This document shows positions 11,952 to 25,071 of a DNA stretch of 25,071 nucleotides, piece after piece. The stretch is from Thermoproteota archaeon (GTDB taxonomy: Archaea > Thermoproteota > EX4484-205 > JAAOZP01). The position numbers and the translations under genes are program-made. Every line of letters starts with the position of its first letter. Position 1 is the stretch's first letter. The notes beneath the pieces were generated by a model. It worked only from the letters and a program-made list of their open reading frames with translations. It was not told the origin of the DNA and ran no database searches. The stretch is from NCBI GenBank assembly GCA_025059435.1, contig JANXDK010000001.1:1-25071 (forward strand), written 5' to 3'.

Positions 11952-12899
11952 ATGGGTAAGAAACCAAGCGTTATAGTAGTTGGAGCAGGCGGTTTCGGGA
12001 AGAACCATGTAAGAGTTCTTGCAGAGCTCGGAAGCTTGGGTGGAGTATGCGACATAGATAGGGAGAAGGCCAGCACATACGGAAAATTATACAATGTACC
12101 GTATTACTTAAACGTATCTGATATTCCTGAGGGAGCCTACGATGGAGCAATAGTCTCAACGCCCACTTCAACCCATAAGGATGTTGCAATGCAAATAGCA
12201 TCGAAAGAAATAGGATATATATTCATAGAAAAGCCTTTCACTCCAACGCTGAAGGAAGCAATAGAACTCATCGAATTTCTTAAAAGGAAGAATGTTAAGA
12301 TAATGGTGGGCTTTATTGAGAGGTTCAATCCAGCCGTCAAGATGGTTAAGAAGTATGTTGATGAAGAGGCTTTAGGCGAGATAATCATGGCTTCGGCTAC
12401 TAGGGTGAGAAGATGGCCTGAGAGAATAATCGATTCAGGGGTCCTCTTAGATACTGCGATTCACGATGTGGATTTGATGAGATATCTTTTCTCAGAAGAG
12501 CCGATCAAAGTATACGCTAAAACGGGAAAGTCGATGCATAGGATCCACGAAGACTATGCAACGATACTATTAACCTTCCAGAGTGGGAAAATGGCATTAA
12601 TTAATGCGAACTGGTTGACCCCTTTTAAGATAAGAAGTATAGAGGTAATAGGTTCTGAAGGCGTGGTTGAAGCCGATTTGGTTACACAACAAGTAACTCT
12701 AAGCTCTAAGGATGATAGGATAACCCCCTTCTCAGAGTGGAGAGAACCCCTTCGCTATGAGTTGAAACATTTCCTTGACTGTATAACTAGTAATGAAAAA
12801 CCCAATCCAGATGAGAGGGATGCTTTAAAAGCACTTGAAATAATCGAGGCCAGTTTAAAATCCTCGAAGACAGGAAATTCCGTTGAGGTAAGTACGTAA
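11952..12899 (+). CDS. Gfo/Idh/MocA family NAD(P)-dependent oxidoreductase
   Basis: GAGGFGKNH Rossmann motif, IEKP, GFIERFNP, DTAIHDVD, ANWLTPFKIR, EPLRYEL; resembles nucleotide-sugar 3-dehydrogenases, substrate not established. Confidence 0.88.
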   Translation: MGKKPSVIVVGAGGFGKNHVRVLAELGSLGGVCDIDREKASTYGKLYNVPYYLNVSDIPEGAYDGAIVSTPTSTHKDVAMQIASKEIGYIFIEKPFTPTLKEAIELIEFLKRKNVKIMVGFIERFNPAVKMVKKYVDEEALGEIIMASATRVRRWPERIIDSGVLLDTAIHDVDLMRYLFSEEPIKVYAKTGKSMHRIHEDYATILLTFQSGKMALINANWLTPFKIRSIEVIGSEGVVEADLVTQQVTLSSKDDRITPFSEWREPLRYELKHFLDCITSNEKPNPDERDALKALEIIEASLKSSKTGNSVEVST

Positions 12900-20838: not shown

Positions 20839-21402
20839 ATGGAAGACGATAGGACCGAGATAACTGCCGAACTCGTTGGAGACCGTCTTATAATATGGAA
20901 CATTATACACTCCCAAGAAGTTTATAAGATGGGCTTCTTCGGCAAACCCGTAGGCATCCCCAAGCCTAAGGATCATAATTTCAATGCCCCCTTAACATTA
21001 GACTTATTCGAGGGTCTTTATCTCTTAGAAAAGAGAATTATTAGAGTGGTTGACAGAGAAGGTAGAGAAATAACTCCTGAGCAATTACTTAGAATCGCCT
21101 CTAGAATACATGAGGATTTCAAAAGCAAATTCATAGTTTATAGGGATCTTAGAAACAGGGGCTTTATAGTTACACCAGGAATTAAATTCGGATGCGACTT
21201 TGCGATATACGAACATGGTCCAGGGATAGATCATGCACCAGCAATACTTGAAGTTAAAAAAGTCGGAGATAAGATAGATGCACCTGATTTTATTCGTGCA
21301 GGTAGGCTTGCAACTTCTGTCAGAAAACTGTTTGTTTTCGCAATATCGGATACGAAAAACGATGACGTTAAATATCTCGTATCAAAATGGTGGAAAGCAT
21401 AA
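20839..21402 (+). CDS. endA: tRNA-splicing endonuclease, catalytic alpha subunit
   Basis: VYRDLRNRGF.V.PG.KFG.DF; catalytic Tyr (AIY), His (DHA), Lys (VRK); N-terminal loop GFFGKPVGIPKPK. Confidence 0.96.
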   Translation: MEDDRTEITAELVGDRLIIWNIIHSQEVYKMGFFGKPVGIPKPKDHNFNAPLTLDLFEGLYLLEKRIIRVVDREGREITPEQLLRIASRIHEDFKSKFIVYRDLRNRGFIVTPGIKFGCDFAIYEHGPGIDHAPAILEVKKVGDKIDAPDFIRAGRLATSVRKLFVFAISDTKNDDVKYLVSKWWKA

Positions 21403-22100: not shown

Positions 22101-22158
22101 AATATTAGGATGAATAATCATGTCCCGCGGGCTGGATTTGAACCAGCGACACTCCGGT

Positions 22159-22203
22159 TTCTGTTCGCCCGGTAGGCTGAACGCCCCCACTCGCGGTGGA
22201 GGA
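22159..22203 (-). other. 45-nt tRNA intron at canonical position 37/38
   Basis: CTGT (32-35) pairs with intron ACAG, followed by a 3-nt bulge AA^A before C39. Confidence 0.9.
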
Positions 22204-22226
22204 CTACAGCCGGAAGCTCTACCAGG

Positions 22227-22247
22227 CTTCTCTCCAAACACTTGGAT
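22227..22247 (-). other. 21-nt tRNA intron in the D loop (13/14 to 15/16; geometry favours 15/16)
   Basis: Insertion ATCCAAGTGTTTGGAGAGAAG with a TCCAA/TTGGA hairpin, and bulges AG^A and AG^C flanking GCTC/GAGA. Confidence 0.85.
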
Positions 22248-22289
22248 CTGAGCTACCGCGGGACGTTTTCTCCTTATGTAGCTGCGTCC

Positions 22290-22302
22290 TTTTTAACTTT
22301 TC
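22290..22302 (-). promoter_or_regulatory. Candidate BRE/TATA for tRNA-Tyr
   Basis: Minus strand GAAAAG-TTAAAAA ending 28 nt upstream of tRNA position 1. Confidence 0.45.
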
Positions 22303-22511: not shown

Positions 22512-22769
22512 TTGGTTAGTAAGAAAAACATTAGTAAAGTTAACATACTCGACCATGTTTTAGTGCCCCGTCACCGGATTTTATCTCATGAAGAGAAGGA
22601 GGCCCTGCTTAAAAAGTATAATATCAAGCCTTCTCAATTGCCCAAGATGCTCAATAGCGATCCCATTGCGGTTGCTATAGGGGCTAAAATAGGGGATATT
22701 GTTGAAATCATAAGGAAAAGTCCTGTTGCCGGAGAGACGCTGGCATACCGCGTGGTAGTGGAGGGTTGA
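22512..22769 (+). CDS. rpoH: RNA polymerase subunit H (Rpo5)
   Basis: [34 protein letters not shown]...AYRVV. Confidence 0.97.
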
Positions 22770-22774
22770 AGAGG

Positions 22775-25071
22775 TTGAGTAACGTGTCTGAGGAACTTAC
22801 CGAGGCAGACCTTTGGATGGTTGCTGAAAGTTATATTAAGAGCATCGGACTGGCGAGGCACCACATAGATTCTTTCAATGAATTTGTAGATAAGGATATG
22901 CAGAAAATAGTGGACGAGGTTAAGAGTGTAGAGGTTAATGTAGAAGATAAGATAATACGTGTGGAGTTTGGAGAGGTAAGGGTCCATGTTCCGAGAATCA
23001 TAGAGCCTAGCGGTGCTATGAGAAACATATACCCAATGGAGGCTAGGATGAGGAACTTTACATATGCTGCTCCAATTTACCTGGAGATTAAGGAGATAAG
23101 AGACGGTAGGGAAATCAGACAAGAGGTTCTGATAGGAGAACTTCCAATCATGGTTAACTCGAGGTATTGTGCACTTGCTGGCCTCAGCCCTGAGGCAAGG
23201 GTTAGGTTGGGCGAAGACCCGTACGATCCCGGTGGCTATTTCATAATAAACGGTTCCGAGAGGGTTATAGTCGGTGTCGAGGACCTTGCTCCCAATAGAA
23301 TAATATTAGAGGAGAAGAAAATAGGCCCATACTCGTTCTATATTGCACGAATATTTTCCACTACAGTAGGTTATAGAACTAGAGTTGAAGTGAGACTGAA
23401 GGGTCAGAGTAATGAGTTAAAGGTATACCTGCCCGGTGTTGGACAGGAGATTCCATTCATAATAATGCTGAAGGCTCTTGGGATGGCCTCGGATAAGGAG
23501 ATAGCAGAACGTGTTTCGCCATTTCCAGAGATACAAGAGCTCTTAGCACCTTCTTTTGATGCTGCCCAGAACATTATGAGTAAAGAGGATGCTATAATGT
23601 ACATTGGCAACAGGGTTGCATATGGGCAGTCAGATAAAGTTCGTTTAAACAAGACTCAGAACGTATTGGACAAGATCCTGTTACCACACCTTGGTATGGA
23701 TGAATCTGCCAGGTACAATAAGGCGCTCTTCTTATGTGAAATGGCTGAGAGGATACTTGCAATGAAACTCGGCTGGCGTCCACCAGACGATAAAGACCAT
23801 TATAAGAATAAGAGGATTAGGCTTGCAGGAGGACTTCTTGCAGAGCTCTTTAGAACATCCTTTAGGAGAATGGTTAGAGACTTTAGGTATCAACTCGAGA
23901 AGTTTAGCTTGAGACATAGAGCTATCTATTCGTTCTCGAATCTTATCACTACTAGTCTAATTACTGATACTATAAACCAAGCCATGGCAACTGGGAATTG
24001 GGGTAAGAGGCTCGTCGGCGTCACTCAGCTACTGGATAGGACCAATTACCTCTCCGTAATAAGTCATCTAAGGAGGATCCAGTCGCCTTTAAGCCGGAGC
24101 CAATCTAACTTTGATGCTAGAGATCTTCATCCTACTCAATGGGGCAAGCTGGATCCTAATGAGACTCCTGAAGGAGTAAACTGTGGATTGGTGAAGAATA
24201 TGAGCATAGGTGCACAGGTCTCAGTTTCTGCAGACAAGTCCGTACTTGATAAGATACTTTCAAAATTCGGCATTATTCCCATCACTAAAGCGGATCAGGA
24301 AACCCGTCTAACGGCGGCGAAGATCTTCATAGATGGAGTCCCAGTAGGATATTCTCATTCTGGCGAGGTCCTTGTTAAAGAGATTAGGAGCCTTAGGAGG
24401 AGAGGAGTAATACCGCCAGAGATAAACGTAGCATATTACGAGTTTAATTACGGCGGGAGGATCGTTAAAGAGATTTACTTTAACGCTGACCCGGGTAGGA
24501 TTAGGAGACCCCTAATAGTAATAGAAGATGGGCAGGTTAAGCTTACTAAGGATCATGTTTCTAAACTTGCTCTCGGTAAGATAAGTTTCGACGACTTGGT
24601 TAACAACGGTATTGTAGAATTCCTGGATGCCGAGGAAGAGGAGAACGCATTTATAGCGGTTTCGCTGAAAGACGTTTCAAACGAGACAACACACCTGGAA
24701 ATAAGCCCCATACTCATATTCGGCGTCGTCTCGGCAATGGTCCCGTTTGCGGAGCACAATCACTCCCCCAGGAATACTTACGAGGCGGCAATGGCTAAGC
24801 AAGCACTGGGTCTTCCCTTTGCAAACATTAACAATGCTTTCTACACTACCTTCCACGTCATGACTTATCCTCAGACCCCATTAGTGTCTTCGAGAATAGA
24901 CCCGATTATAGGCCTCGATAAAAGGCCTATTGGTCAGAACTTCTTAGTGGCAGTATTATCACACCCGTATAATATGGAGGATGCCATAGTTCTAAATGCT
25001 GCATCTATCCAACGTGGCCTCGCTAGGTCAACCACCTACAAATCATATGAGGTTGAAGCCAGGAGATATCC
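22775..25071 (+). CDS. rpoB: RNA polymerase subunit B (Rpo2), unsplit; runs off the window end, not in ORF track
   Basis: Translated by hand with no stop for 765 codons: HIDSFNEF, GGYFIINGSERV, DDKDHYKNKRIRLAG, ATGNWG, ETPEGVNCGLVKN, DAEEEEN, HNHSPRNTY, YNMEDA. Start is TTG 22775 or GTG 22784. Confidence 0.97.
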   Translation, partial: MSNVSEELTEADLWMVAESYIKSIGLARHHIDSFNEFVDKDMQKIVDEVKSVEVNVEDKIIRVEFGEVRVHVPRIIEPSGAMRNIYPMEARMRNFTYAAPIYLEIKEIRDGREIRQEVLIGELPIMVNSRYCALAGLSPEARVRLGEDPYDPGGYFIINGSERVIVGVEDLAPNRIILEEKKIGPYSFYIARIFSTTVGYRTRVEVRLKGQSNELKVYLPGVGQEIPFIIMLKALGMASDKEIAERVSPFPEIQELLAPSFDAAQNIMSKEDAIMYIGNRVAYGQSDKVRLNKTQNVLDKILLPHLGMDESARYNKALFLCEMAERILAMKLGWRPPDDKDHYKNKRIRLAGGLLAELFRTSFRRMVRDFRYQLEKFSLRHRAIYSFSNLITTSLITDTINQAMATGNWGKRLVGVTQLLDRTNYLSVISHLRRIQSPLSRSQSNFDARDLHPTQWGKLDPNETPEGVNCGLVKNMSIGAQVSVSADKSVLDKILSKFGIIPITKADQETRLTAAKIFIDGVPVGYSHSGEVLVKEIRSLRRRGVIPPEINVAYYEFNYGGRIVKEIYFNADPGRIRRPLIVIEDGQVKLTKDHVSKLALGKISFDDLVNNGIVEFLDAEEEENAFIAVSLKDVSNETTHLEISPILIFGVVSAMVPFAEHNHSPRNTYEAAMAKQALGLPFANINNAFYTTFHVMTYPQTPLVSSRIDPIIGLDKRPIGQNFLVAVLSHPYNMEDAIVLNAASIQRGLARSTTYKSYEVEARRY

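Follow-up and report, generated by a model that had tools for sequence, protein, structure and literature searches.

The EndA of Aeropyrum pernix removes the D-loop intron of pre-tRNA-Thr2(UGU) in vitro, and this tRNA matures in vivo (Hirata et al. 2011, PMC3241643). A loop in the enzyme and residue K44, which is required, give it activity on non-standard positions and on a BHL substrate, the pre-tRNA-Tyr from Cenarchaeum symbiosum (PMC3241643). Genes with several introns are also known; for the tRNA-Pro(UGG) of Pyrobaculum islandicum, reviews give introns at positions 25/26, 37/38, and 56/57 (Sugahara 2007/2008, Fujishima 2010; PMC4090602, PMC4033280). tRNAscan-SE 2.0, which has a thaumarchaeal intron model, reported 673 non-canonical introns in 217 archaeal genomes (PMC8450103). 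Non-canonical and multiple tRNA introns belong to the textbook picture of Thermoproteota; D-loop introns and multi-intron tRNAs have both been described repeatedly, and for A. pernix there is biochemical proof. The locus described here comes from a lineage on which a literature search for tRNA introns (Brockarchaeota) gave nothing relevant.

The locus lies in a 25,071-nt stretch of DNA (the window) from a metagenome-assembled genome (MAG) of 564 kb in 100 contigs, with a GC content of 41.5% and an estimated completeness of 70%. That estimate looks generous, given that congeneric assemblies measure 1.2 to 2.3 Mb and that about 21 tRNA genes are detectable. MAGs of the genus come from Chinese and Kamchatkan hot springs and are titled Candidatus Brockarchaeota or Thermoproteota archaeon, titles that agree with the host group (TACK archaea) suggested by the first-pass annotation. 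The gene of interest and its parts are as follows.

22123 to 22262, minus strand: tRNA-Tyr(GTA) gene, 140 nt; exons of 15, 23, and 36 nt give a mature tRNA of 74 nt with a C1-G72 pair and A73, CCA not being encoded
22248 to 22262, minus strand: exon 1 (tRNA positions 1 to 15), comprising the acceptor 5' strand, U8 A9, the D-stem strand GCTC, and A14 G15
22227 to 22247, minus strand: putative non-canonical D-loop intron, 21 nt, ATCCAAGTGTTTGGAGAGAAG, position 15/16
22204 to 22226, minus strand: exon 2 (16 to 37), comprising the D-loop remainder, the D-stem 3' strand, the anticodon-stem 5' strand, and CTGTAG
22159 to 22203, minus strand: canonical 37/38 intron, 45 nt, with central helix CTGT/ACAG and bulges AG^T and AA^A
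22123 to 22158, minus strand: exon 3 (tRNA positions 38 to 73)
22290 to 22296, minus strand: TTAAAAA, a putative TATA-box-like element 28 to 34 nt upstream of tRNA position 1

This locus resembles A. pernix tRNA-Thr2 in its (putative) protein-spliced D-loop intron and in an EndA of the same type, with the specificity-loop lysine kept. The A. pernix motif, however, is a canonical BHB (bulge-helix-bulge) at a non-standard position, whereas that in the window is relaxed (the central helix has three pairs and one mismatch, and an outer helix is absent). Unlike the A. pernix case, the tRNA-Tyr has a second intron at 37/38. With the multi-intron genes of Thermoproteales, it shares the combination of canonical and non-canonical introns, HBh'/hBH motifs, and fast gain and loss among close relatives; intron transposition is reported there, but we saw no sign of it in this lineage of MAGs titled Brockarchaeota. 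The BHL intron that C. symbiosum has in its pre-tRNA-Tyr, one of the thaumarchaeal non-canonical introns (PMC3241643), likewise belongs to a tRNA-Tyr from the GTDB phylum Thermoproteota and has one splice site in an open loop. Hidden D-arm inserts in Asgard archaea are also short (median of about 22 nt) and missed by annotators (bioRxiv 10.64898/2026.10.13.758758), but they belong to another phylum and reach five per gene, compared with two in the window gene.

Read 5' to 3', the gene consists of CCCGCGG, TA, GCTC, and AG; the 21-nt insert ATCCAAGTGTTTGGAGAGAAG; CCTGGTA, GAGC, T, TCCGG, and CTGTAG; the 45-nt intron (22203..22159); and A, CCGGA, GTGTC, GCTGG, TTCAAAT, CCAGC, CCGCGGG, and A. Removal of both inserts in silico (i.e., the 21-nt D-loop insert and the 45-nt 37/38 insert) yielded a clean cloverleaf of 74/75 nt that ARAGORN called tRNA-Tyr(gta). 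When the 21 nt alone were removed, ARAGORN read tRNA-Tyr(gta) with a canonical intron, and GCTC-AGCCTGGTA-GAGC was given back exactly, as the first-pass annotation had stated in describing an insertion that breaks the D loop. Its remark that such tRNAs are often missed by annotation also applies here: default ARAGORN and Rfam at the gathering threshold found no tRNA in the whole window. The Rfam tRNA model RF00005 scored the window gene at 16.5 bits. A congeneric ortholog lacking the 21 nt (G003), with the same exons and a near-identical canonical intron, serves as a natural control and scored 52.7 bits. ARAGORN with the -i option reported an Arg(ccg) gene with a 60-nt intron, a misreading in which the gene ends are right and the identity is wrong. 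The only tRNA-Tyr gene found in the assembly is invisible to default finders, and inferences on completeness or codon usage would be wrong without intron-aware calling.

The fold of the D-loop insert involves three elements.

22233 to 22246, minus strand: helix h', TCCAA/TTGGA, 5 bp with a GTGT loop, intron nucleotides 2 to 6 with 11 to 15
22250 to 22253, minus strand: 5' strand of the central helix H, GCTC (tRNA positions 10 to 13), which in the mature tRNA forms the 5' side of the D stem
22229 to 22232, minus strand: 3' strand of the central helix H, GAGA, inside the intron, its last A being mismatched with G10

Folding prediction gave pair probabilities of 0.57 to 0.86 for helix h'. In helix H, intron nucleotides 16 to 18 (GAG) pair with C13 U12 C11, and nucleotide 19 (A) faces G10. 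Two bulges of 3 nt each stand in the right register, with A14 G15^A on the 5' side and A G^C16 on the 3' side. An outer helix is absent, as U8 A9 cannot pair with C17/U. The window copy has three standard pairs plus G10.A where a strict BHB has 4 bp; all four pairs are present in five congeners. We therefore read the insert as a relaxed, HBh'/BHL-like motif in which the 5-bp h' directly abuts the 5' bulge; HBh'/BHL belongs to the relaxed motifs of the Marck and Grosjean class, according to a review (PMC4090602). The fold given in the first-pass annotation (h', the GTGT loop, two 3-nt bulges, and the G-A mismatch) was right in every detail. Its relaxed BHB also stands as the best reading.

The combination of H (at least three inner pairs) and h' (at least 5 bp) in exact register occurred in 0.054% of insert shuffles and 0.018% of random 21-mers, i.e., the relaxed motif arises by chance at about 5e-4. 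A recent census regards three out of four central pairs without an outer helix as nearly uninformative by themselves (bioRxiv 10.64898/2026.10.13.758758); the specificity of the motif here rests on h' and on comparative data.

Because AG stands at both junctions, the sequence alone allows a boundary at 13/14, 14/15, or 15/16, and the same product results from all three. The canonical intron of the same gene obeys the bulge rule, with CUGU/ACAG, A36 G37^U, and A A^A38, each cut falling after the second bulged nucleotide; the same rule places the D-loop boundary at 15/16. The predicted spliced junction is GCUCAG joined to CCUGGUAG.

Since the source is a metagenome-assembled genome, and since contigs of one sequencing run (X1) break within the tRNA, the insert might have arisen in assembly, come from a chimera, or be a variant that is rare in the population. 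This reading is already effectively refuted. Over 6.5 kb that include the gene, a 53-kb contig of another NCBI assembly (GCA_033582015.1) agrees with the window at 100% identity, and hot-spring run contigs from two studies seven years apart (X2, 2014, record 13; X3, 2021, records 22 and 23) cover positions 22227 to 22247 with zero differences. In addition, five other species have homologous introns at this site. A search for RNA runs of this organism listed DNA metagenomes only.

We compared the tRNA-Tyr genes of the genus (loci L058 to L073; congeners are designated by G numbers), a comparison that the first-pass annotation had suggested. The gene occurs in the same synteny in 15 of the 16 other species, and the mature tRNA-Tyr of all 15 orthologs is identical to that of the window. 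Gene order (EndA alpha, ArsR-family regulator, tRNA-Tyr, rpoH, rpoB) was kept in 15/15 congeners examined. Its protein-coding members in the window are the following.

20839 to 21402, plus strand: catalytic (alpha) subunit of EndA, 187 aa, of crenarchaeal type and bearing the specificity loop
21464 to 21787, minus strand: ArsR-family (ArsR-like) regulator
22512 to 22769, plus strand: rpoH
22766 to 25069, plus strand: rpoB

The position of introns beyond the canonical one varied within the genus.

D-loop 15/16, second intron: window (21 nt), G015 (49 nt), G014 (54 nt), G011 (48 nt), G006 (50 nt), and G002 (50 nt)
D-stem 22/23, second intron: G008, G016, G001, G009, and G007
Variable region (about 44)/3' anticodon stem: G013; also G007, where it is the third intron
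T-loop (about 58), second intron: G010 and G005
No intron beyond the canonical one: G003 and G004

Upstream of the tRNA-Tyr gene, G003 and G004 have an element similar to that of the window, AAGTTAAA(T/A)AAGGA.

Among the six genes interrupted at 15/16, the junction nucleotides and the bulges were invariant. In helix H, GCUC faces GAGC, GAGU, or GGGU in the relatives and GAGA in the window. At the G10 position (pair 5/62), four genes have GU, one has GC, and one (the window) has another combination, its sisters having U or C opposite G10. Cells of H and h' were paired in 97.5% of cases, compared with 22 to 49% when the partners were slid. Three H/h' pairs changed on both sides, a count reached by 21 of 500 shuffles; with only six related sequences, the power of this test is modest. 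MAFFT misplaced the short intron of the window relative to the long ones; h' was compared by hand, and only the H columns of the window were counted. Read against the outer part of the relatives' h', the window h' shows two U-A to C-G double changes. These 15/16 introns appear to be homologous, with structure, not sequence, conserved.

The same comparison bears on whether the 21 nt might be retained, leaving mature tRNA-Tyr with a larger D-loop that holds an additional hairpin. The window copy has a weak helix H (3 bp plus G.A; P of about 0.2 to 0.5), and the TCCAA/TTGGA hairpin would fold alone (P of 0.57 to 0.86), but we consider retention very unlikely. The GAGN tract is complementary to GCTC in 6/6 species, and bulge sizes and AG^ junctions are invariant while the hairpin drifts in sequence and length (21 to 54 nt), a pattern that fits a splicing motif rather than a D-loop extended for structural reasons. 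With 50 nt of hairpin inserted between G15 and C16, the G15-C48 and G18/G19-T-loop tertiary contacts would also be broken. Moreover, two close relatives have the same mature sequence without any second intron, and others have theirs at another site.

A tree of four flanking proteins grouped the window with the long-intron genomes G011 and G014 (SH-aLRT, 85; an open fork). G002 and G015 fell outside the G011/G014 group and inside the same well-supported clade, and the intron-less G003 and G004 formed a derived subclade with G013. As the nearest relatives of the window are among the five long-intron genomes, the simplest history would make the 21-nt form a shortened derivative of an intron of about 50 nt, ancestral in the clade, and would have the intron lost once. 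The last eight intron nucleotides are GAGAGUAG in G011 and GAGAGAAG in the window and differ in one U-to-A change; we propose that this single change made the G.A mismatch. G006 is nested outside this clade, in the other one, and yet has its D-loop intron family, which hints at recombination. We found no copies of the long intron family in other tRNA genes; among 26 genomes of the order, its matches were confined to the tRNA-Tyr locus.

An intact tRNA-Tyr elsewhere, which the first-pass annotation had named as evidence against a functional double-intron gene, was not found. In each genome the anticodon arm of tRNA-Tyr occurred solely at the syntenic locus when the pattern was searched with zero mismatches; matches with one mismatch were mostly coding-sequence noise and were not used. 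The window assembly (564 kb in 100 contigs, estimated to be 70% complete) may lack a second copy, and the G.A mismatch can be read as motif decay, so that the gene might be a pseudogene undergoing decay or might be superfluous beside another tRNA-Tyr gene that the assembly misses. We give this possibility only a slim chance. A pseudogene would be expected to gather exon changes, but the exons match those of 15 congeners at 100% identity, with synteny and the promoter-like element likewise intact. As for redundancy, the intron-bearing congeners G014, G002, and G006 (89 to 93% complete) have the anticodon arm at the syntenic locus only. With a single tRNA-Tyr locus in these more complete congeners, the interrupted gene would be the one source of tRNA-Tyr and has to be rendered functional.

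The candidate splicing enzyme is encoded close to its putative substrate. The EndA open reading frame of the window contains both EndA domains and lies 700 nt from the tRNA gene. Its closest matches were the catalytic subunits of heterotetrameric enzymes from A. pernix (alpha, 3P1Z_B, E value of 6e-45), S. tokodaii, and P. aerophilum. The alignment is gap-free through the crenarchaea-specific loop, with K42 falling on A. pernix K44, and the Tyr/His/Lys triad is kept; the product of 20839 to 21402 is the enzyme expected to cut the tRNA-Tyr precursor. A second EndA paralog of 197 aa, 30% identical and also with both domains, was found on contig C67 at about 12199 to 12456 (L020:1219-1812). It has Ser/Lys at the catalytic His position, as expected of a structural partner of the catalytic EndA. 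Its best PDB matches were of the alpha4 type (M. jannaschii 1A79 and M. kandleri 5X89), above known crenarchaeal beta subunits. By these sequence features, the host has an EndA pair of alpha/beta type with the specificity loop, which would be expected to accept relaxed motifs, as do (alpha-beta)2 and epsilon2 enzymes with this loop. No RtcB turned up in the 564-kb assembly, which is far smaller than those of the congeners; of the five congeners that bear the intron, four have it. As a separate observation, the EndA gene is always about 0.7 kb from the multiply interrupted tRNA-Tyr gene in the 15 congeners.

We conclude, with a probability of roughly 85%, that the 21 nt are a genuine protein-spliced intron at position 15/16 of the only tRNA-Tyr found in the assembly, which also has a 37/38 intron. 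This second-intron reading rests on the exact restoration of the tRNA upon excision, the register of the motif, the five congeners, the identical mature tRNA, the single locus, the EndA pair, RtcB in four intron-bearing congeners, and the further tRNA genes of the genome that appear to have non-canonical introns; the D-loop intron of A. pernix pre-tRNA-Thr2 is its precedent. The double-intron tRNA-Tyr put forward by the first-pass annotation is supported on these points and by the compensatory changes, with the same-site intron in five congeners and the mature tRNA identical in 15.

In the splicing pathway that we propose, C11 U12 C13 of the precursor (with G10 facing A) would pair with GAG(A) close to the insert's 3' end and form a short central helix, on one side of which the 5-bp intron hairpin would stack. 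The splice sites would then lie in the two 3-nt bulges, A14 G15^A and A G^C16, of a motif relaxed by having no exon-exon helix. An (alpha-beta)2 EndA would cut either bulge after its second nucleotide, RtcB would ligate the exons, and the D stem GCTC/GAGC would form. Energetically, this pathway appeared marginal in the window copy. For the full precursor, the predicted probability of H was about 0.47 at 37 C and about 0.2 at 70 C, and that of the mature D stem was 0.2 at 37 C; with the canonical intron removed, the values at 37 C were 0.04 and 0.71, respectively. Full precursors of the long-intron relatives gave H probabilities of 0.7 to 1.0 at 37 C. In the isolated D-arm, the mature D stem was predicted to be favoured over H. 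Given the modest predicted stability of H, the window copy is probably a minimal, less efficient EndA substrate. The earlier statement that GCTC must first pair with GAGA rather than with its mature partner follows from the BHB model, but its energetics are marginal in this copy.

The full window precursor was predicted to favour H because of a 9-bp pairing between the canonical intron and the D-loop, which involves two segments.

22167 to 22175, minus strand: CTACCGGGC, 9 nt in the canonical intron, complementary to D-loop G15 to G22
22219 to 22227 with G15 at 22248, minus strand: D-loop partner, GCCTGGTAG

In the window, the 9-nt segment lies in the loop of a GTTC/GAAC hairpin. We evaluated the pairing in a set of 13 tRNA-Tyr genes, all lacking a D-loop intron, that span at least eight families of the phylum (alignment A2; loci L023, L025, L032, L037 to L042, L045 to L047, and L049). 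Cells were paired in 96.6% of cases, compared with 18 to 49% when slid, and none of 500 shuffles reached the score. At two pairs both partners had changed in a compensatory way, from U-A to A-U in four genes and from C-G to U-A in a single gene. In the full window precursor, the nucleotides at the 3' splice site (G and C) were also predicted to be paired with the canonical intron. The 9-bp pairing could therefore assist D-loop splicing, if it took the place of an outer helix and prevented the D stem, or hamper it, by covering the G and C of the 3' splice site. An idea that we regard as speculative, and rather unlikely, is that the canonical intron is a built-in D-arm folding guide; where a gene has a D-arm intron as well, it would block the D stem, leaving the weak central helix free to form, and replace the outer helix, with the D-loop intron spliced first. 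If so, the 9-nt helix would lie directly 3' of the 3' bulge of the D-loop intron, and the order would be D-loop first and canonical second. C/D-box motifs (RUGAUGA and CUGA) were not seen beside the 9-nt segment, and a methylation-guide reading of it was set aside for lack of them. A shallow literature search found no description of a pairing between the D-loop and the canonical intron.

Other tRNA genes of the genome also appeared interrupted when read by eye. Gln(CTG) (C2:2816-2924) and Ser(CGA) (C14:188-307) seem to have a D-arm insert plus a canonical intron, and apparent inserts were noted at about 22/23 in Asn(GTT) (C76:2398-2485), near 43/44 in Ala(TGC) (C64:635-720), and in the variable/T region of Lys(TTT) (C44:3166-3263). 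A genome census by removing one segment at a time and running ARAGORN was abandoned as far too permissive, since each gene drew conflicting calls by the hundred. In a sister family, tRNA-Thr(GGT) carries an unrelated 19-nt insert in the D-loop context GCTCAG followed by CCTGGTAG.

L056:1498-1537 (G019) and L057:1501-1540 (G025): 19-nt insert of tRNA-Thr(GGT)

The central helix of that insert, GCTC/GAGC, is perfect and the inner hairpin comprises 3 bp; the gene also has a canonical intron of about 12 nt.

The understanding of tRNA splicing is unchanged by these results; their use lies in annotation, in intron turnover, and in the study of minimal EndA substrates. A single genus with an identical mature tRNA-Tyr displays five second-intron states and a long-to-short series at one site. 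The genus thus offers a clean natural series for the gain, shrinkage, and loss of archaeal tRNA introns, one that also bears on how little of a BHB motif an alpha-beta EndA needs.
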